Positions 20,611 to 63,038 of a stretch of 64,000 nt of DNA are shown in pieces. This DNA is from Escherichia phage TH09. The notes beneath the pieces are model-generated. The model searched no databases. It was not told the origin of the DNA and was given only the letters and a program-made list of their open reading frames with translations. Where the stretch lies: sequence record MT446387.1; one strand, 5' to 3'. The position numbers and the translations under genes were made by a program. Every line of letters begins with the position of its first letter. The stretch's first letter is position 1.

Positions 20611-22176
20611 TTAGATACCTTTAACATATACACGGCGGAAGTAAGCGTTTTTACCAAGGCTATTCAGAATAGAAGGCATACCGCTCTGGATGCGAGAAGC
20701 CGGAGCCTGAGCAGCGGATTCTGCAAATGGGTTGATACCGATACCGTAACGAGTTTTGAATCCCATTACTGGTTGGAAGTTCTTCGGATCGGAACCACGC
20801 AGCGGAGTTAGAGCTACATATGGAGCGTAGTAAATACCAGCATCCATTTCGTTCGGACCTTTATAACCTACAGTGAAATAATCCTGTTTAGCATACTGGT
20901 CGATATATACACGGTATTTACCACCCAGAACACCAGCAAATACTGACTTGGTAGTATCAGTGTTAAAGCCGGTAGCCAGACCTTGCGCAGCATAAGAAAT
21001 GCCAGTATCAACTGAAGCCAGAACGTTAACTACGTTACGGGAAGCGATAATGAAGTTACCTTCACCACGACCGGTCTGACGAGCAATTTCAACTGCTTCT
21101 TTGTCAATCTGGAACAACAGAGCTTTAAAGGATTCACCCGCCCAGCGAGCACCACGAATATCGATTGGGTCCTGGAAGTCAAATACACCAGCTTTAGAAC
21201 CCGGAGTCAGGGTCATACCAGATTTACCAACCTGAGCTGAGTAGTTAATCCAATCAACAACTTCACGGTTGATTTCCAGCATAATTTCTGTAGCCAGAAT
21301 GCCAGACAGTTCAGCATCAGCATCCATACCGTGAACAGCACGGAGGTCTTGTGCTAATTCGATAGAGTAAGCAGCTTTCAGCTGACGAGATTTAGCTTCG
21401 ATAACTTGTTTATCGATACGGAAGCCCATTTCATTCCATGGGTTATCGGTAGAACCATTGAAACCTTCCTGGAGTTCAGCGATAGAAGTAGCCATACCTT
21501 CAGCGATTTCTACCAGTGCACCAGCTTCCATTTGTTTCTTAATTTCAGCATCTAATTTAGCAGCATCAGTCGCGCCAGCATCGATTGTTACTTGAACAGA
21601 AGCTTGCAGATATACAGTACCAGTTTCCTGGAAGAAGTGAGTATAGATATCACCTACTGTAGTTTGTGTGCTAGCAGCCAGAGCTGGGAATTTCTTAGCA
21701 GCACCCTGACCAGAGAACATTGCATCTGGACCATACATTGGGTGGAATGCTTCTTTAGCATCGGAAGCGATTGGGTCTTTACCGTATACTGCGCGCAGTG
21801 CGAATACCTGGCCAGTCGGGCTGTTCATCGGCTGAACACCACAAATATCGAAAGCAATCAGGTTAGGAATAGCACGACGTACCATACCCATAACAGCTGG
21901 GCCAATCTGAGTTACCGCGCCAGAAGTCTGACCTGCAGCAATGTTAGTAGCATTATAACCGTGGTCACCACCGATTTCAGCTTCTGTTAAGAAAGAACCG
22001 AATGCCTGAGCAATTTTTTCGTCTTTATATTCCGGAGCTGTCTGGAAATCTTTTTCCTGGTTTTCAAAGATTTTAGCGATAATCGCTTGTTTGCTATTAG
22101 CAATTTCCGGTAAACCTTCACCTTCCAGTAATGGCTTCCATTTGTTCAAAAGTTCAGCTTTAGTTTTGATAGTCAT
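20611..22176 (-). CDS. 23: major capsid protein gp23
   Basis: 521-aa ORF matching recalled T4 gp23 (MTIKTKAELLNKWKPLLEGEGLPEIANSKQAIIAKIFENQ...). Confidence 0.95.
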   Translation of the reverse strand: MTIKTKAELLNKWKPLLEGEGLPEIANSKQAIIAKIFENQEKDFQTAPEYKDEKIAQAFGSFLTEAEIGGDHGYNATNIAAGQTSGAVTQIGPAVMGMVRRAIPNLIAFDICGVQPMNSPTGQVFALRAVYGKDPIASDAKEAFHPMYGPDAMFSGQGAAKKFPALAASTQTTVGDIYTHFFQETGTVYLQASVQVTIDAGATDAAKLDAEIKKQMEAGALVEIAEGMATSIAELQEGFNGSTDNPWNEMGFRIDKQVIEAKSRQLKAAYSIELAQDLRAVHGMDADAELSGILATEIMLEINREVVDWINYSAQVGKSGMTLTPGSKAGVFDFQDPIDIRGARWAGESFKALLFQIDKEAVEIARQTGRGEGNFIIASRNVVNVLASVDTGISYAAQGLATGFNTDTTKSVFAGVLGGKYRVYIDQYAKQDYFTVGYKGPNEMDAGIYYAPYVALTPLRGSDPKNFQPVMGFKTRYGIGINPFAESAAQAPASRIQSGMPSILNSLGKNAYFRRVYVKGI

Positions 22177-22194: not shown

Positions 22195-23004
22195 TTAGAA
22201 ACGAGATGCGACTTTCGCATATACACTTACAATATCTTCTGCACCTTGTGCAGATTTATCTTCTACAGCTTCAGTGACGAAATTCAGTCCGGCTGCTTCA
22301 GTATCAGGAGTATTTATACTCTCAGTAATAGTGCTTTCATCTTTATTAGATTTCTTCACCATTTCTACGATTGCACTCAATTTACTTGAGAATGCATCTG
22401 AATAATCCATACCTTCGACCAGAGCAGAGACTTTTTCTTTTTGAGACTCAGTCAGATCTTTAGTACTTTCGCTCAATGCCACTTCACGCTGCACATAATT
22501 GATATATGCGTCACGCTTATTGAGTTCTTCGAACAGACGAGCTGATTCTTCTTTATGTTCTTGCAGTTCTTCTTCCATTTCAGCTACAACATCAACTGAT
22601 TCTTCTGGAACAACAACGTTGTGTTCAACGAAGAGCTCTTTCAATCCACCAAGCATGGATTCAAACAGTTCGGCTTTGATGCCTTTATCTACTGCTAATT
22701 TATTTTCAGTGAGCCATTCTTTTGCAAGATGGTCAAGGAATTTAGAAGCTTGCTCAGCGATTTTCTTCTCAGCTTTTTCTTCTGCTTCTTCTTTATTTTT
22801 TTCTACTTCTTCTTCTGCTTTTTCAGCAATTTTAGCGATATGAGATTCAGCTAATTTAACGGCGTGCTGCTTGACGGTAGCTTCGAATACAGTGCCGAAA
22901 GTTTCTTTTGCTTCCGGAGAAATATTAACTGATTCGAAAATACTATCAAGAGCAACGGAAGCATCAATTTTCTGCGCTTCGGCAATCAGTTGTTCTTTAA
23001 GCAT
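22195..23004 (-). CDS. 22: prohead core scaffold protein gp22
   Basis: 269-aa acidic coiled-coil ORF, T4 gp22 length; late promoter upstream. Confidence 0.9.
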   Translation of the reverse strand: MLKEQLIAEAQKIDASVALDSIFESVNISPEAKETFGTVFEATVKQHAVKLAESHIAKIAEKAEEEVEKNKEEAEEKAEKKIAEQASKFLDHLAKEWLTENKLAVDKGIKAELFESMLGGLKELFVEHNVVVPEESVDVVAEMEEELQEHKEESARLFEELNKRDAYINYVQREVALSESTKDLTESQKEKVSALVEGMDYSDAFSSKLSAIVEMVKKSNKDESTITESINTPDTEAAGLNFVTEAVEDKSAQGAEDIVSVYAKVASRF

Positions 23005-23031: not shown

Positions 23032-23039
23032 TATTTATA
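23032..23039 (-). promoter_or_regulatory. late promoter TATAAATA (gene 22)
   Basis: TATTTATA on the plus strand, 28 nt upstream of the gene 22 start. Confidence 0.7.
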
Positions 23040-23673
23040 ACGCTTTTTTCATGGCCTCTGCGAGAGCCATATAGGCGTCATCGGCACTTGTATCGGCTTC
23101 CGCCGTCTGTGATTCGGTAATTTCCTTAGGAGTTACCCATGCATCTGGAGCACTTGGACCCCATACTGCATCAACACCTACAGTTAATTTGAATCCTTCG
23201 TTTACGATACGATAACCTTTATTTGTGTCAGTCAATGAACCTAATCCACGAGAAGAAACTCCTGGAATCCATCCGGCACGAATATTAGCTGCTAATTTAT
23301 CTCCAGGACCATGGTCACCTTCAATAACACGAGCTCGTCCGTATACGTCATTTCCTTTCCACCACATATCTTCTATAATGATAGCGGCTTGCATCGGGTC
23401 AACATTAGCGCGTGGAGGATGATTTAATTCTCCGAGAGCTTGTTTAGTTAAAACTTGCTCATTAATATAGTCTTTTACCGCTTTTTCTAATATACGTTTT
23501 GGATAAAGACGTTTATTTCTATTGACGACTTCCGCTTGCATGAATATTCCTTCGATGTATAAACCAGGTTTTAAACCTAAGTCTTTTCCATCATGAGATT
23601 CAAGCATTGGTACGCCATCAATAATTTCGCCAGGTTGACCCCAAGTTTCAATTAGTAATTGGGGTTCATTCAT
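23035..23673 (-). CDS. 21: prohead core protease gp21
   Basis: 212-aa ORF, T4 gp21 length and position. Confidence 0.9.
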   Translation of the reverse strand: MNEPQLLIETWGQPGEIIDGVPMLESHDGKDLGLKPGLYIEGIFMQAEVVNRNKRLYPKRILEKAVKDYINEQVLTKQALGELNHPPRANVDPMQAAIIIEDMWWKGNDVYGRARVIEGDHGPGDKLAANIRAGWIPGVSSRGLGSLTDTNKGYRIVNEGFKLTVGVDAVWGPSAPDAWVTPKEITESQTAEADTSADDAYMALAEAMKKAL

Positions 23674-51181: not shown

Positions 51182-51894
51182 ATGAAACTAATCTTTTTAA
51201 GTGGTGTAAAGCGTAGTGGAAAAGATACTACTGCTGATTTTATCATGAGCAATTATTCTGCAGTTAAATATCAACTTGCTGGTCCTATTAAGGATGCATT
51301 GGCTTATGCATGGGGTGTATTTGCAGCAAACACTGACTATCCTTGTTTAACTCGTAAAGAGTTTGAAGGAATTGACTATGATCGTGAAACTAATTTAAAT
51401 CTGACTAAATTAGAAGTAATTACGATTATGGAACAAGCATTTTGCTATCTTAATAGTAAAAGCCCAATTAAAGGTGTGTTTGTTTTTGATGACGCAGTTA
51501 ATTTCGTAGCATTTAACAAGATTGCTGACGTTATAAATAATATTGAAGATCAATGGTCAGTCCGTCGTCTGATGCAAGCCCTAGGTACGGATTTGATTGT
51601 TAATAACTTCGACCGCATGTATTGGGTAAAATTATTTGCTTTAGATTATCTTGATAAATTTAACTCAGGTTATGATTATTATATCGTTCCTGATACTCGT
51701 CAAGATCATGAAATGGATGCGGCTAGGGCGATGGGTGCTACAGTAATTCATGTAGTTCGTCCTGGTCAAAAATCCAATGATACTCATATTACAGAAGCTG
51801 GATTGCCAATTCGTGATGGCGATTTAGTAATTACAAACGATGGTTCTCTTGAAGAACTTTTTTCTAAAATTAAAAATACACTAAAGGTACTATA

Positions 51895-51895: not shown

Positions 51896-52592
<697 letters not shown>

Positions 52593-52604
52593 TTTCACAA
52601 AGTT

Positions 52605-52641
52605 GTTTACACGCTGATGAGGTAGTGATACTATTATCTCA
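52605..52641 (+). promoter_or_regulatory. early promoter with stem-loop enclosing the -10 (PeSL-like cassette)
   Basis: GTTTAC, 17 nt, gtgATACTAtt; inverted repeat gatgag/ctcatc spans the -10. Confidence 0.65.
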
Positions 52642-52664
52642 TCAAAATTAATTAGGAAAATAAA

Positions 52665-52922
52665 ATGAAAACTTTCAAAGAGTTTGCTACAAAAACTACT
52701 ATCACCGAATCTTCCCACGGTATGGAAGTAAAGCTTGGAATGGCTTTAGCTGAAGCTGAGCGTCTTTTCTCTCGTATTAAAGAACTTGCTGCTGCAGTCG
52801 ATCCTTCATCTTTTAAAGGAGACCAAACTAAAGTTAAAGCGCTTTTAGCATTATGCTCAGATGCAGGAGAAATTGCTAAAAATGGTTCTAAGATGAAGAA
52901 ACGATTAGAAGATTTAAAATAA
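52665..52922 (+). CDS. internal-protein-like protein with CTS-like N-terminus (85 aa)
   Basis: N-terminus MKTFKEFATKTTITE resembles the T4 capsid targeting sequence (MKTYQEFIAE); preceded by an early promoter/stem-loop cassette. Confidence 0.6.
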   Translation: MKTFKEFATKTTITESSHGMEVKLGMALAEAERLFSRIKELAAAVDPSSFKGDQTKVKALLALCSDAGEIAKNGSKMKKRLEDLK

Positions 52923-52934
52923 TTTCACAAAGTT

Positions 52935-52966
52935 GTTTACACAGGGTTTTAGTAGTGATACTATTA
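52935..52966 (+). promoter_or_regulatory. early promoter (PeSL-like), near-identical copy of the cassette at 52605
   Basis: The sequence aatttcacaaagttgtttacac ... agtgatactatta is repeated. Confidence 0.65.
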
Positions 52967-52998
52967 CTCTATCAAAACAAAACCAAATGGAAATCAAA

Positions 52999-53232
52999 AT
53001 GAAAACTTTCAAAGAGTTTATCGCTGAATCTTCTGATGTAAAAGTTGAGTTTATTTACACCGGCAAGAAAGATAAAATGGGTGAAATGCCTCATGGAGTT
53101 CTTCGTGATGCATTAGATAATTTCGGTCAACTCGCCGCAGAAGATTACGGTGATAAAATTGTTGTTACTGGTCCTGCTGCAGTTATTGAAAAATGGGCAG
53201 CAGAAAATAAATCAATTTTTCGTAAAAAATAA
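52999..53232 (+). CDS. internal-protein-like protein with CTS-like N-terminus (77 aa)
   Basis: Track ORF starts at a TTG inside the promoter; ATG at 52999 gives MKTFKEFIAESS..., same arrangement as the upstream gene. Confidence 0.55.
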   Translation: MKTFKEFIAESSDVKVEFIYTGKKDKMGEMPHGVLRDALDNFGQLAAEDYGDKIVVTGPAAVIEKWAAENKSIFRKK

Positions 53233-53271
53233 GTTTACTTTTAGATAGGGTAGTGATACTATTACCCTATC
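53233..53271 (+). promoter_or_regulatory. early promoter with stem-loop (gataggg / ccctatc) enclosing the -10
   Basis: GTTTAC, 17 nt, gtgATACTAtt inside an inverted repeat. Confidence 0.6.
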
Positions 53272-53290
53272 AACTACCGAGGAGAATAAA

Positions 53291-53476
53291 ATGAAACGTT
53301 GTGAATTAATTCGAAATGTTGCTATTGCAATTTCTGCTTCTGCTTTTAGTTTTTCAATGTTTGTTGGATTTATATGCGGATTATTGACTACAGCAGAAAA
53401 TGTGTTTTCGCTTGTAGTAGCATTTTTAATTGGTTTAATCGCTATCGTTATGGATAAAATTTCTAAAGGTGAATAG
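53291..53476 (+). CDS. small membrane protein (61 aa, two predicted TM helices)
   Basis: Hydrophobic ORF with its own early-type promoter/stem-loop upstream. Confidence 0.5.
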   Translation: MKRCELIRNVAIAISASAFSFSMFVGFICGLLTTAENVFSLVVAFLIGLIAIVMDKISKGE

Positions 53477-54753: not shown

Positions 54754-54826
54754 TGGGAATTAGCCAAGTTGGTAAGGCACTGGATTTTGATTCCAGGATG
54801 CAAAGGTTCGAGTCCTTTATTCCCAG
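54754..54826 (+). tRNA. tRNA-Gln (anticodon TTG)
   Basis: Hand-folded cloverleaf: acceptor tgggaat/attccca, anticodon loop ttTTGat, T-loop ttcgagt. Confidence 0.85.
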
Positions 54827-54827
54827 C

Positions 54828-54914
54828 GCGAGAATGGTCAAATTGGTAAAGGCACAGCACTTAAAATGCTGCGGAATGATTTCCTTGTGGGTTCGAGTCC
54901 CACTTCTCGCACCA
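54828..54914 (+). tRNA. tRNA-Leu (anticodon TAA), type II, CCA encoded
   Basis: Acceptor gcgagaa/ttctcgc, anticodon loop ctTAAaa, long variable arm, T-loop ttcgagt. Confidence 0.85.
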
Positions 54915-54919
54915 AATTT

Positions 54920-54993
<74 letters not shown>

Positions 54994-55003
54994 ATTTAAT
55001 TTA

Positions 55004-55077
55004 CTCCGTGTAGCTCAGTTTGGTAGAGCGCCTGATTTGGGATCAGGAGGTCCAAGGTTCAAATCCTTGTATGGAGA
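55004..55077 (+). tRNA. tRNA-Pro (anticodon TGG)
   Basis: Acceptor ctccgtg/tatggag (two G-U pairs), anticodon loop ttTGGga, T-loop ttcaaat. Confidence 0.8.
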
Positions 55078-55079
55078 CT

Positions 55080-55169
55080 GGAGGCGTGGCAGAGTGGTTT
55101 AATGCACCGGTCTTGAAAACCGGCAGTCGCTCCGGCGACTCATAGGTTCAAATCCTATCGCCTCCGCCA
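55080..55169 (+). tRNA. tRNA-Ser (anticodon TGA), type II, CCA encoded
   Basis: Acceptor ggaggcg/cgcctcc, anticodon loop ctTGAaa, long variable arm, T-loop ttcaaat. Confidence 0.85.
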
Positions 55170-55174
55170 GTTTT

Positions 55175-55250
55175 GCTGATTTAGCTCAGTAGGTAGAGCA
55201 ACTCACTTGTAATGAGAAGGTCGGCGGTTCGATTCCGTCAATCAGCACCA
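55175..55250 (+). tRNA. tRNA-Thr (anticodon TGT), CCA encoded
   Basis: Acceptor gctgatt/aatcagc, anticodon loop ctTGTaa, T-loop ttcgatt. Confidence 0.85.
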
Positions 55251-55251
55251 A

Positions 55252-55326
55252 GGCCCTGTAGCTGGAAGGTTCAAGCAAGCGACTCATAATCGCCAGATGG
55301 TGGTTCAATTCCACCCAGGGCCACCA
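55252..55326 (+). tRNA. tRNA with anticodon CAT, probably the AUA-reading tRNA-Ile of T-even phages (could be Met)
   Basis: Acceptor ggccctg/cagggcc, anticodon loop ctCATaa, T-loop ttcaatt. Confidence 0.75.
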
Positions 55327-55339
55327 AATTAAGAATTAA

Positions 55340-55426
55340 GGGGAGTTATCCCGTAGAGGTAGCGGTGTGGACTGTAAATCCATTGTCATTGCGACTCGGG
55401 TGGTTCGACTCCATCACTCCCCACCA
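55340..55426 (+). tRNA. tRNA-Tyr (anticodon GTA), type II, CCA encoded
   Basis: Acceptor ggggagt/actcccc, anticodon loop ctGTAaa, long variable arm; the D-arm fold is slightly atypical. Confidence 0.7.
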
Positions 55427-55430
55427 ATTT

Positions 55431-55505
55431 GGATGTGTAGCTCAATGGCAGAGCGATCGCCTGTTAAGCGATTGGTTATAGGTTCGAATCCTATCACGTC
55501 CGCCA
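55431..55505 (+). tRNA. tRNA-Asn (anticodon GTT), CCA encoded
   Basis: Acceptor ggatgtg/cacgtcc, anticodon stem atcgc/gcgat with loop ctGTTaa, T-loop ttcgaat. Confidence 0.8.
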
Positions 55506-55509
55506 AATA

Positions 55510-55585
55510 CGAGGCATAGCTCAGAAGGAAGAGCAAGGACCTTCTAAGTCCTGGGTCGTAGGTTCGATCCCTACTGCCTCGACCA
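55510..55585 (+). tRNA. tRNA-Arg (anticodon TCT), CCA encoded
   Basis: Acceptor cgaggca/tgcctcg, anticodon stem aggac/gtcct with loop ctTCTaa, T-loop ttcgatc. Confidence 0.85.
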
Positions 55586-55589
55586 AACA

Positions 55590-55930
55590 AGAAGCCGGGT
55601 CGCTACCGGTAAGTCGTCGGACTGATGTTCCCTGGGTAAGGACTGGCATTAACAAATCTTTACGATCGGTTAATGCCCCCTTACATCACAGCAGAAACGG
55701 CGCACCGAATTATCGATTCGAGGAAATATCTTTGCCGTAAGCCGAGTAGCGTTTTTGACGGAACGTTCGGATATGGTTGAGATATGGCCTTTTAAAATAT
55801 TAAGTAGCGTCAACTGCTTAATAACCGGGTTCGAATCCCGGCGTTTCGTACAAACACTTGCCTTAGCAGGTGGAACCCCGACAAGGTTGCCGCAAGGCTT
55901 AGCCCCGACCGAAAGGTTGGGGCTTTTTGG
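55590..55930 (+). ncRNA. structured non-coding RNA region directly after the tRNA cluster (one or two small stable RNAs; boundaries uncertain)
   Basis: About 340 nt without a plausible ORF, GC-richer than its surroundings; 8-bp hairpin gcattaac/gttaatgc near 55646..55677; tRNA-like T-arm ccggg-ttcgaat-cccgg at 55825..55841; ends in a GAAA-tetraloop terminator. The position corresponds to the small stable RNAs of T4. Confidence 0.5.
55902..55930 (+). terminator. hairpin (GAAA loop) plus T-run ending the small-RNA region
   Basis: gccccgacc-gaaa-ggttggggc followed by ttttt. Confidence 0.7.
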
Positions 55931-55938
55931 TATAAATA
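55931..55938 (+). promoter_or_regulatory. late promoter TATAAATA
   Basis: Exact motif 41 nt upstream of the ORF at 55979, right after the terminator. Confidence 0.6.
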
Positions 55939-55978: not shown

Positions 55979-56452
55979 ATGAAATCATATGCTCAATTTT
56001 TAAATGAAGCGGTGTTAAATGAAGCATCTAGCACCGAAATTCAAGCTGTCGCAAAAGCTGCCATTGCCGCGGGTAAATATTCCTATAAAGATGCTTCCGA
56101 TGAATCACGATTCCAATTTGCTCGTGATATGAAAGCCGAAGGATTTACAGGGAATGCAGTTAGTATGGCTTGGAAAAGTTTAGTTGCTACTGGAGCTGCT
56201 TTTGCAAAGGCTTCAGGTAAACCTGCTCCTAAAGCAGATCCTAAAGTCGCACAAGAGAAAAATATTGTTAAAGGAATTATCTCCAAATATGAAGCTATCC
56301 TTAAAGAGCTTTTAGTAATTAAAACTGAAGGCCAAAAGCTAGCTCGTGCTTATAGTTTCAAAGATAACCCACATGTTCACTCTCTTGAATATGTTGAAGA
56401 CATCCAAAAAATTATTAAAGACCGCATTTGGTCTGCTAAACAAATCAAATAA
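55979..56452 (+). CDS. internal-protein-like protein with CTS-like N-terminus (157 aa)
   Basis: N-terminus MKSYAQFLNEAVLNE; TATAAATA 41 nt upstream; hairpin terminator downstream. Confidence 0.6.
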   Translation: MKSYAQFLNEAVLNEASSTEIQAVAKAAIAAGKYSYKDASDESRFQFARDMKAEGFTGNAVSMAWKSLVATGAAFAKASGKPAPKADPKVAQEKNIVKGIISKYEAILKELLVIKTEGQKLARAYSFKDNPHVHSLEYVEDIQKIIKDRIWSAKQIK

Positions 56453-56570: not shown

Positions 56571-57134
56571 ATGAAAACCTACGCCGAATTTTTAACCGAA
56601 GCAGCAAAATTACCATCTGAAGCAGATCTTACTAAAGTATTCTTCCACTTGGACCCAAAAGACCGTGGCGATTTTCTTAAGTGGAAAGCTAAAGCTATTG
56701 AAATGTACAACATCGATAATAGTTCTTTTACAATGAGTCAAGAAAATAAATTCAATAAAGCATTTTTCAAAATTTCTAAGAAATTGGCATCTGGCGCTCA
56801 GGTTCCTAAATCTGCATTAGCTACTCCTGAACGCGCACCTGTTAAAATTTCTAAGAATATGTTCGACACTAAAAAATACGTTAATGCTTTGAATAAAGCT
56901 CTTGATGCATTGGATGATGCAAAGAAGGCAGCCCGTGATCTTCAAGACGTGTACACCGATTTTGATCGTAAAACTAAAGGTTCTATTTCAAATAGCGAAC
57001 GCAATAGTGTAAGTGTTTATTCTGATAGCCTTGACGTTCTTGGCGATGCGTATACTGAAATTAAAAATCGTATTAACACTGCATCTAAGCTAAAAGCTGC
57101 CGCAGAAGCTATAATAACTAAACTAGATAAATAA
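56571..57134 (+). CDS. internal-protein-like protein with CTS-like N-terminus (187 aa)
   Basis: N-terminus MKTYAEFLTEAAK; hairpin terminator downstream. Confidence 0.6.
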   Translation: MKTYAEFLTEAAKLPSEADLTKVFFHLDPKDRGDFLKWKAKAIEMYNIDNSSFTMSQENKFNKAFFKISKKLASGAQVPKSALATPERAPVKISKNMFDTKKYVNALNKALDALDDAKKAARDLQDVYTDFDRKTKGSISNSERNSVSVYSDSLDVLGDAYTEIKNRINTASKLKAAAEAIITKLDK

Positions 57135-57168: not shown

Positions 57169-57300
57169 GCATCTAGGCCTTTCTGGATCTCTCTAGGCAT
57201 CATTTAGTTTCTACCCTTTATAATATATTATCCTATCCTTTAATTGCCCCTTCCATCCCTAGAATTCCCTAAAACTTTTTAAAAAATTTTTCACAAAACT

Positions 57301-57330
57301 GTTTACATCCCTGTTCTTCCATGGTACTAT
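57301..57330 (+). promoter_or_regulatory. early-type promoter (GTTTAC, about 18 nt, TACTAT)
   Basis: Motif match upstream of the ORF at 57374. Confidence 0.5.
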
Positions 57331-57373
57331 ACAACTATCAACTACTGATACAGAAAACAACTTGGAGAATGAA

Positions 57374-57637
57374 ATGGATAATTACGGCGAACTGTTCAAC
57401 TTCTTTATGAAATGCGTTTCAGAAGATTTCGGTCGTACAGTGAATGATATTAAAGTTATCGGTCCTGATCATCCGATGTTTGAAACTTACGCAGTAATGG
57501 GTAATGAAGACGGTCAGTGGTATACTGTAAAGGTTGTGATTAACATGTTCACAGCAGAAGGTTATGTTAAACTGTCTTCTAAAGTTTACCATGATAACGA
57601 CGAAATCGCAGAAGAATATTTCAATAATATGAAATAA
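57374..57637 (+). CDS. hypothetical protein (87 aa)
   Basis: Track ORF starts at a TTG; ATG at 57374 with GGAGA 5 nt upstream; early-type promoter at 57301. Confidence 0.5.
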   Translation: MDNYGELFNFFMKCVSEDFGRTVNDIKVIGPDHPMFETYAVMGNEDGQWYTVKVVINMFTAEGYVKLSSKVYHDNDEIAEEYFNNMK

Positions 57638-61110: not shown

Positions 61111-62079
<969 letters not shown>

Positions 62080-62138: not shown

Positions 62139-62555
62139 ATGACTCGTATTAATTTGACTTTAGTATCTGAACTTGCTGATCAACATTTAATCGCAGAATA
62201 CCGTGAATTGCCGCGTGTTTTTGGTATAGTTCGTAAGCATGTGGCAAACGGTAAGCGCGTTAAAGATTTTAAAATATCTTCCGAGTTTATTTTAGGTTCT
62301 GGTCATGTTACGTTCTTTTACGATAAGTTAGAATTTTTGCGAAAGCGTCAATTAGACATTATAACGGAATGCTTAAAACGCGGGTTCAGTATAAAAGATA
62401 CTGAAGTTCCTGACATCAGCGATATTCCAGTAGAATGGAAAAATGATTATAATCCATGCAAATCAGCTATTAAATTGAGTCAACAACGACTTGATGAAAA
62501 AATTTTAATGAAACCACATTGGTATAAGTATTACGGTAAAAATATTTACATTTAA
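62139..62555 (+). CDS. denV: endonuclease V (pyrimidine dimer DNA glycosylase)
   Basis: 138-aa ORF matching recalled T4 endo V ([17 protein letters not shown]...). Confidence 0.9.
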
Positions 62556-62564
62556 AGGAAACAT

Positions 62565-63038
62565 ATGAAAACATATCAAGAATTTATCACTGAAGCAGCT
62601 ATTAATTCTCAAATTATTGCTGAATCTTTTACTGATCTTTTGAAATTTAAAAAAGGTCAAAAAATCACTGCTGTATTGGATGATGGTACAGAAGTTGAGA
62701 TGGATGTACAGGGATATAATTATGCAGTAGATGGAAAATTGTATAATAAATCTCATGCTAAATTTGATTCATTTGACGACTTTGTTAATACAGTTGAAGA
62801 TGAAAAAACTCGTCGATCCATTGCAACTGGTGATGCTAAGGTTCTTATGGCACATGGTCATGAACGCATTCGCGCTAAACAGAATAAAATGGGCGAAGAT
62901 AATTTCGCATTAGTTGGTTATCAATCTGGTAAACAAACTTATGGTTATCAACGTACTGCTACCATGTATAATAAAAATGGTAAAATTGCCTTTGTGAATA
63001 GTAAAGGTTCTATTCAGTACGTTAAATCGTTCAAATAA
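62565..63038 (+). CDS. internal-protein-like protein with CTS-like N-terminus (157 aa)
   Basis: N-terminus MKTYQEFITEAAINS is almost the canonical T4 capsid targeting sequence. Confidence 0.6.
   Translation: MKTYQEFITEAAINSQIIAESFTDLLKFKKGQKITAVLDDGTEVEMDVQGYNYAVDGKLYNKSHAKFDSFDDFVNTVEDEKTRRSIATGDAKVLMAHGHERIRAKQNKMGEDNFALVGYQSGKQTYGYQRTATMYNKNGKIAFVNSKGSIQYVKSFK

Follow-up and report, generated by a model that had tools for sequence, protein, structure and literature searches.

The stretch analyzed here, which we call the window, comprises 64,000 nucleotides of one strand, read 5′ to 3′, of Escherichia phage TH09 (sequence record MT446387.1), a Tequatrovirus, and the two adjacent genes lying between positions 52,665 and 53,232 are ip5 and ip6, alternative internal protein (IP) genes of the T-even phages that occupy the slot held by ipI in T4. 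Each encodes a short protein that begins with a capsid targeting sequence (CTS), and each stands behind a promoter-early stem-loop (PeSL) cassette. By analogy with the T4 internal proteins, Ip5 and Ip6 probably travel in the phage head and enter the host along with the DNA. We regard the account as a whole as highly probable, that is, the identity of the genes, packaging through the CTS, cutting by the prohead protease gp21, injection against a host nuclease and swapping at PeSL cassettes. Literature and GenBank annotation already cover the genes, the cassette, the polymorphic nature of the locus and the hypothesis of an anti-defence role. A preliminary description made from the letters of the DNA had reported two adjacent genes starting MKTFKEF, and both open reading frames (ORFs) were found at that place. 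The features of the locus are as follows.

52137-52592 (+), gene 57B (= Acb1); Pfam PF23474 Acb1, E 2.7e-60; gp57B in the annotation of GiZh, T6 and T4.
52577-52647 (+), PeSL cassette 1, obtained from repeat family D1, the promoter scan and the predicted fold; AT-rich upstream block, -35 box TTTACA at 52606-52611, 17-nt spacer, TG-extended -10 box TACTAT at 52629-52634.
52615-52627 paired with 52632-52644 (+), hairpin of cassette 1, 13 bp, with the -10 box enclosed.
52665-52922 (+), ip5 (ipV), 85 aa.
52665-52709 (+), CTS propeptide of Ip5, residues 1-15; predicted gp21 cut after I13-T14-E15.
52907-52977 (+), PeSL cassette 2; -35 box TTTACA at 52936-52941, -10 box TACTAT at 52959-52964.
52943-52970 (+), hairpin of cassette 2, interrupted and weaker.
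52999-53232 (+), ip6 (ipVI), 77 aa; phrog_8111 'internal virion protein', E 3.3e-51.
52999-53028 (+), CTS propeptide of Ip6, residues 1-10; predicted gp21 cut after I8-A9-E10.
53205-53275 (+), PeSL cassette 3; -35 box TTTACT at 53234-53239, -10 box TACTAT at 53257-53262, 5′ part diverged.
53244-53255 paired with 53260-53271 (+), hairpin of cassette 3, 12 bp.
53291-53476 (+), trna.4 homologue, a 61-aa predicted membrane protein; phrog_1692, E 6e-35; tRNA.4 in the annotation of GiZh and T4.

Across 52137-53476 (1340 nt), the window is 99.8% identical to JLBYU31, 99.5% to GiZh, 98.7% to PST and 98.2% to T6, and the complete arrangement is present in 236 phage records, with the annotation of GiZh and PST naming the genes ipV and ipVI and adding the remark 'replaces ipI'. 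The Ip5 of the window is 100% identical to the Ip5 of RB15, while its Ip6 is 100% identical to the ipVI product of PST. A total of 496 phage records contain Ip5-family genes, 268 at ≥80% identity and 228 at <60% (about 47% in the records listed), whereas Ip6 is present in 246 records; Ip5 is ≥95% identical in 249 records and Ip6 ≥90% identical in 180. T2 carries at least ip5. The Ip5-family genes below 60% identity adjoin lysozyme e, or a gene so annotated, in every record listed, and direct inspection of Mosigvirus HX01 located its Ip5-like gene (~47% identical) beside lysozyme e, which is the other IP locus.

The variable IP locus has conserved borders, gene 57B on the left and, on the right, the trna.4 homologue, which cassette 3 would drive. 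That T4 has ipI at the corresponding position and that the locus is hypervariable, both claimed beforehand, proved to be right: between 57B and trna.4, T4 carries a single ipI between the same two flanking cassettes, T6, GiZh, PST and this window carry ip5 and ip6, and RB15 carries ip5, ip9, ip7 and ip8. RB15 and PST thus share with the window the same genes, the same 57B-trna.4 position and the same flanking cassettes, though in RB15 ip5 is paired with ip9, ip7 and ip8 and not with ip6. The 57B/Acb1 product is a cyclic-nucleotide phosphodiesterase directed against the cyclic-oligonucleotide-based antiphage signalling system (CBASS), yet it is named 'RNA ligase' in the RefSeq records of GiZh, T6 and T4. 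As Acb1 lies directly upstream of ip5, the IP slot sits in a counter-defence neighbourhood.

The N-termini had been described beforehand as resembling the capsid targeting sequence of T4, which agrees with the starts of IPI, IPII and IPIII. The ORFs of Ip5 and Ip6 begin with MKTFKEFATKTTITESS and MKTFKEFIAESS, respectively; with a slash at the cleavage point, the N-terminus of Ip5 reads MKTFKEFATKTTITE/SS and that of Ip6 MKTFKEFIAE/SS, compared with MKTFKEFTSTTTPVSTITE/A in T4 IPI and MKTYQEFIAE/A in IPII and IPIII. MKTFKEF opens both proteins and is the same as residues 1-7 of T4 IPI. The [LI]xE cleavage motif is found at I13-T14-E15 in Ip5, I8-A9-E10 in Ip6, I17-T18-E19 in IPI and I8-A9-E10 in IPII and IPIII. 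Mapping of the CTS has assigned targeting to the aromatic residues 4 and 7 and processing to I8 and E10, and the first 10 residues of IPIII are enough to bring foreign proteins into heads (PMC9026906). Ip5 and Ip6 both have F at positions 4 and 7, with Ip6 also maintaining I8 and E10, while the cleavage motif of Ip5 is shifted to residues 13-15. Five ORFs of the window start with the strict CTS motif MK[ST][YF]x[EQ]F, for which 0.009 occurrences over six frames would be expected by chance. The CTS and the cleavage site are kept in all the Ip5/Ip6 family members aligned: an Ip5 relative (P0004) has a five-residue deletion in the CTS and retains ITE/S, and distant Ip6 relatives (e.g., P0019 and P0020) keep CTS and cleavage site with a strongly diverged mature part. 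The genes for the gp21 protease, the gp22 scaffold and the gp23 capsid protein are present in the same genome, and the position of ip5 and ip6 is one of the two IP loci of T-even phages, so that the CTS, the cleavage motif, the gp21 and gp22 genes and the IP-locus position make both proteins probable members of the T4-type internal proteins. The assembly genes are as follows.

23035-23673 (-), gene 21, prohead core serine protease; Pfam PF03420 Peptidase_S77, E 1.5e-111.
22195-23004 (-), gp22 scaffold gene, beside gene 21; PF25623, E 5.2e-90.
20611-22176, gp23 capsid gene, beside gene 21; PF07068.

The mechanical ORF list begins ip6 not at the ATG at 52999 but at a TTG at 52933, which was rejected, being upstream of the -10 box of cassette 2 (52959-52964) and liable to bury the CTS inside the protein. 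The ATG at 52999 is taken as the real start because it puts the CTS at the N-terminus, has a GGAAA Shine-Dalgarno upstream and lies downstream of the -10 box. The 98-aa public gene calls (P0006 and P0008) use the TTG and carry 22 extra residues ahead of the CTS; such TTG-start calls (52933-53232) are almost certainly mis-annotations.

Once the CTS has been removed at the predicted site, mature Ip5 would have 70 aa and a pI of 9.2, and mature Ip6 67 aa and a pI of 6.5. Two long helices arranged as a hairpin were predicted for Ip5 (predicted local distance difference test, pLDDT, 71), while Ip6 was predicted to form a beta-alpha-beta-beta-alpha-beta domain (AlphaFold2 pLDDT 81; predicted template modelling score 0.65), and the mature part of Ip6 is modelled as a small ferredoxin-like domain. 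Neither protein proved to have an informative homologue. No Pfam family was found above threshold for either protein, the sequence search of the PDB gave chance matches alone (E ≥0.76), and in the Foldseek search of BFVD, Ip6 matched its own family only and Ip5 had no match below E 0.5. Word-indexed homologue searches returned close relatives only. An exhaustive HMMER profile search with Ip6 against 1.84 billion representatives yielded seven matches, five of them short Ip6-family proteins or fragments (three beginning with the CTS) and two spurious repeat proteins; since nothing else was matched, Ip6 appears to have no cellular or other viral homologue. The literature search on Ip5 and Ip6 returned inositol-phosphate papers only.

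The three cassettes of the locus are, as judged from their sequence, the published PeSL element, each combining a sigma70-like early promoter of the T4 type with a hairpin, a Shine-Dalgarno and an ATG. The PeSL was defined in T4-type phages as an AT-rich region, an early promoter, a stem-loop lying over the -10 box or between the promoter boxes, a Shine-Dalgarno and an ATG; PeSLs are enriched near small variable genes, and modular shuffling by homologous recombination was the proposed route (PMC2839356, PMC4122927). The locus shares with the PeSLs described by Arbiol et al. (2010) and Comeau et al. (2014) the composite structure, the repeats around small variable genes and the hyperplastic region, and PST, the phage analyzed in the 2014 paper (PMC4122927), carries ip5 and ip6 too. 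The consensus given there for PST and T4, TTTACW-N17-TAYWAT (PMC4122927), fits all three cassettes, each of which has TTTAC(A/T), 17 nt and TACTAT, with a TG extension in the first two. In 64 kb there are three occurrences of the core GTTTAC-N15-19-GATACTAT (0.00 expected), and the ip5/ip6 locus has all of them. The preliminary description, which overlooked the PeSL publication, had put an identical or near-identical cassette of about 45 bp before each gene; the near-identity stands, but the copies are not identical and the direct repeat measures 71 nt, with cassettes 1 and 2 being 83% identical and cassette 3 62%. Two blocks, of 32 nt (52581-52612) and 15 nt (52622-52636), match exactly between cassettes 1 and 2, which have in common a further 24-nt block over the start codon and the first seven codons.

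Every predicted cassette hairpin encloses the -10 box, although the 5′ arm differs between cassettes 1 and 2. The predicted folds reach -14.8 kcal/mol in cassette 1 (z -3.3 against shuffles), -12.6 kcal/mol in cassette 2 (z -3.0) and -17.4 kcal/mol in cassette 3 (z -4.0). In a small sample of seven copies of one hairpin type, taken from four phages (this window, T4, T6 and RB15), 92% of the hairpin cells are paired, against 31-74% in slid controls, and two pairs change on both sides, from G-C to A-U and from A-U to G-C, which lends the hairpin modest compensatory support. As the hairpin lies upstream of the expected transcription start, it would form only in transcripts coming from upstream. 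A role of the hairpins as canonical intrinsic terminators was rejected because no T-run follows them. The stems here are rich in A/T, include G-U pairs and lack a T-run, whereas those of RB49 and phi1 are polyG/polyC and were shown to terminate transcription; the reporter assays of PeSLs concern RB49 and phi1 only (PMC2839356).

The repeat also takes in the final five codons of the gene before it, DDLK* in 57B (52577-52592) and EDLK* in ip5 (52907-52922), with both ends coded by the same GA(T/A)GATTTAAAATAA. This suggests that the insertion of ip5 was accompanied by a joint duplication of the AT-rich element upstream of the promoter and the C-terminal codons. Elsewhere in the window, a PeSL-like promoter, TTTCACAAAACTGTTTACATCC...GGTACTAT, was located at 57289-57330 (+) upstream of an e.8-like ORF (57362-57637), and its 18-nt 5′ block TTTCACAAAACTGTTTAC has two differences from the matching block of cassettes 1 and 2.

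A comparison of 12 cassettes revealed that three leader types pair with different genes across T4, T6 and RB15 and that the cassette halves re-assort. The leaders and the genes which they precede are as follows.

CAAAATTAATTAGGAAAATAAAATG: ipI (T4); ip5 (T6, GiZh and this window); a near-identical variant before ip7 (RB15).
CAACTACTGAGGAGAATAAAATG: trna.4 (T4, T6 and this window); ip9 (RB15).
CAAAACAAAAC...AAATGGAAA..AAAATG: ip6 (T6 and this window); ip8 (RB15).

The nearest late-promoter motif on the same strand, TATAAATA, lies at 51532 within gene 1, and T4 likewise has one there on the same strand. The late supply of Ip5 and Ip6 at prohead assembly is something that we infer, because early-type promoters alone stand directly upstream of the genes. 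GGAG is missing from the leaders of ip5 and ip6, while the trna.4 leader has it (GAGGAG). GGAG is the cut site of the T4 RegB endoribonuclease in early messages. As a matter of speculation, ip messages that do not contain it could last longer.

The course of events expected for Ip5 and Ip6 follows that of the T4 proteins IPI, IPII and IPIII. Through its N-terminal CTS, each protein would dock to the gp22 core that scaffolds the prohead, gp21 would cleave after Glu15 in Ip5 and Glu10 in Ip6, and hundreds of copies of each mature protein of about 7.5 kDa would be kept in the head and ejected with the DNA. After ejection, their most likely action would be to bind, and so block, a host nuclease directed at glucosyl-hydroxymethylcytosine DNA, before phage genes are expressed, the nuclease probably being a variant of the GmrSD type IV family. 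The PeSL cassettes would give each gene its transcription signals and also offer short stretches of homology where co-infecting phages exchange, acquire or lose whole ip genes.

T4 Ip1, Ip2 and Ip3 inhibit three different type IV restriction enzymes of the GmrSD kind, one each and without cross-protection, and the authors of that work proposed that the accessory proteins of both IP loci all target GmrSD variants (PMC12373910). A close counterpart is T4 IPI, an injected inhibitor of the type IV enzyme GmrS/GmrD, which shares with the two proteins the slot, the flanking PeSL cassettes and the first seven residues; Ip5 moreover has its long type of propeptide ending in I-T-E. Mature IPI (IPI*), at 76 aa, is similar in size to mature Ip5 and Ip6, and the scaffold core, gp21 cleavage and ejection route of IPI are those to be expected for both by analogy. 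In contrast, the mature domains of Ip5 and Ip6 are unrelated in sequence to that of IPI, and phages with ip5 and ip6 in the place of ipI are restricted by GmrSD-CT596. T4 IPII and IPIII (Ip2 and Ip3, which inhibit GmrSD-ECOR21 and GmrSD-ECOR17) resemble Ip6 in the short 10-residue CTS with I-A-E at residues 8-10 and would belong to the same functional class, but they are encoded at the other locus, by lysozyme e and denV, and their mature domains are unrelated. The comparison with IPI and other internal proteins that the preliminary description had called for therefore came out divided, the CTS and cleavage motif being common and the mature domains not. Its wording, 'candidate injected anti-defence effectors of unknown specificity', coincides with the current view of the field (PMC12373910; PMC3012670), although it overlooked the partial negative test of ip4-10 against GmrSD.

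Several observations weigh against the account favoured here. In the 2025 screen, ip4-10 supplied in trans failed to inhibit a GmrSD panel reproducibly (PMC12373910 Supplementary Fig. 9), in which eight active systems from a very diverse family were tested, and GmrSD-CT596, GmrSD-ECOR21 and GmrSD-ECOR17 restrict T2 and T6 (PMC12373910). Beyond the CTS, Ip5, Ip6 and IPI* are mutually dissimilar, with BLASTP alignments stopping at the end of the CTS, and a test of membership in the IPI* family found no mature-domain homology of Ip5 or Ip6 to IPI*. Ip6 is near neutral, whereas internal proteins are classically basic. No canonical late promoter (TATAAATA) was found directly upstream of ip5 or ip6, the promoter/terminator scan listed no intrinsic terminator at the cassette hairpins, and the searchable literature yielded no virion-proteomic or N-terminal data on Ip5 or Ip6. 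Since T6 (ip5 and ip6) and T2 (at least ip5) are sensitive to GmrSD and the screen of ip4-10 was negative, a target other than GmrSD or a non-specific structural role has to be given some weight. Were Ip5, Ip6 or both injected inhibitors of a different defence, for instance some further modification-dependent nuclease or a system that is not a nuclease and is set off as the DNA enters, both the negative panel and the sensitivity of T2 and T6 to three GmrSD types would fit; the mature folds unrelated to IPI* and the neighbouring Acb1, which targets CBASS and so widens the neighbourhood beyond anti-restriction, point the same way. However, a GmrSD target missed among only eight active systems is the simplest reading of the screen, and the authors of PMC12373910 hold that both IP loci target GmrSD variants, so we consider a target outside GmrSD a tentative and rather unlikely possibility.

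A role as bulk components of the head, in which Ip5 and Ip6 are packaged for charge neutralization, DNA packing or core assembly, as suggested for IPIII, while the locus varies by neutral drift and cassette turnover, would suit the basic mature Ip5, the head-assembly aberrations of T4 IPIII and triple-IP mutants (PMC9026906) and the lack of reproducible anti-GmrSD activity of ip4-10. The pI of 6.5 of Ip6 does not suit it, and all three T4 internal proteins, once properly tested, are specific GmrSD inhibitors. Within each family, the mature domains vary little (Ip5 in 249 records, Ip6 in 180), which favours a folded, selected function over filler, and the locus adjoins another counter-defence gene, Acb1; we therefore consider the bulk role improbable. 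It could also be supposed that the CTS-like N-termini are vestigial and that both are ordinary early cytoplasmic proteins that never enter the head, in keeping with the early-type promoters and with the missing proteomic evidence for packaging. Yet in family members that have otherwise diverged, conservation is greatest in the CTS and cleavage motif, residues 1-10 of IPIII are by themselves enough to carry foreign proteins into heads, and T4 ipI, the precedent for packaging, has the same early-type cassette while IPI reaches about 360 copies per head (PMC9026906 Table 1), which makes vestigial N-termini highly improbable. Packaging through the CTS, followed by injection against a host nuclease, is the reading that we prefer.

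Three further ORFs of the window also begin with a CTS or a CTS-like sequence. Two tandem paralogous ORFs at 55979-56452 (157 aa) and 56571-57134 (187 aa), both on the + strand and both matching phrog_2280 'unknown function', start with MKSYAQFLNE/A and MKTYAEFLTE/A, respectively, with [LI]xE at residues 8-10, and are located between the transfer RNA (tRNA) cluster and the genes on the e.8 side. The first of them (55979) has a late-promoter motif, TATAAATA, at 55931, and terminators made of a GC-hairpin and a T-run stand before it (55901) and after it (56460). In the best 12 of the 127 phage records that match over nearly the full length, these ORFs are called 'hypothetical protein' or lie in an unannotated record. 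To judge from their sequence, these may well be internal proteins missed by annotation, which would make up a third IP cluster. The fifth CTS-bearing ORF of the window, at 62565-63038 (+), encodes 157 aa starting MKTYQEFITE/A, matches phrog_3155 'internal virion protein' and directly follows denV (62139-62555) and lysozyme e (61585-62079), compared with the T4 order e-ipIII-ipII-denV.

The tRNA cluster at 54754-55851 (+) contains 11 genes, for Gln, Leu, Gly, Pro, Ser, Thr, Met/Ile-CAU, Tyr, Asn, Arg and Lys, the last of which (55758-55851, 94 nt) may be a mis-call of an rnaC/rnaD-type stable RNA region. No segB homing endonuclease was found within this cluster, while T4 (eight tRNAs) and T6 (seven) each have a segB-type gene in theirs.

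The window confirms that ip5 and ip6 are arranged in the usual manner in a T6-type phage and that their signals for targeting and cleavage are intact, and it adds no new element to the question of the Ip5 and Ip6 target. Injected head proteins act before phage gene expression and help to decide whether T-even phages infect wild E. coli, so they are relevant to host-range prediction and to phage therapy cocktails. If the target of Ip5 or Ip6 did lie outside the GmrSD family, the IP loci of T-even phages would be general 'first-strike' anti-defence islands, reaching beyond the inhibition of type IV restriction.

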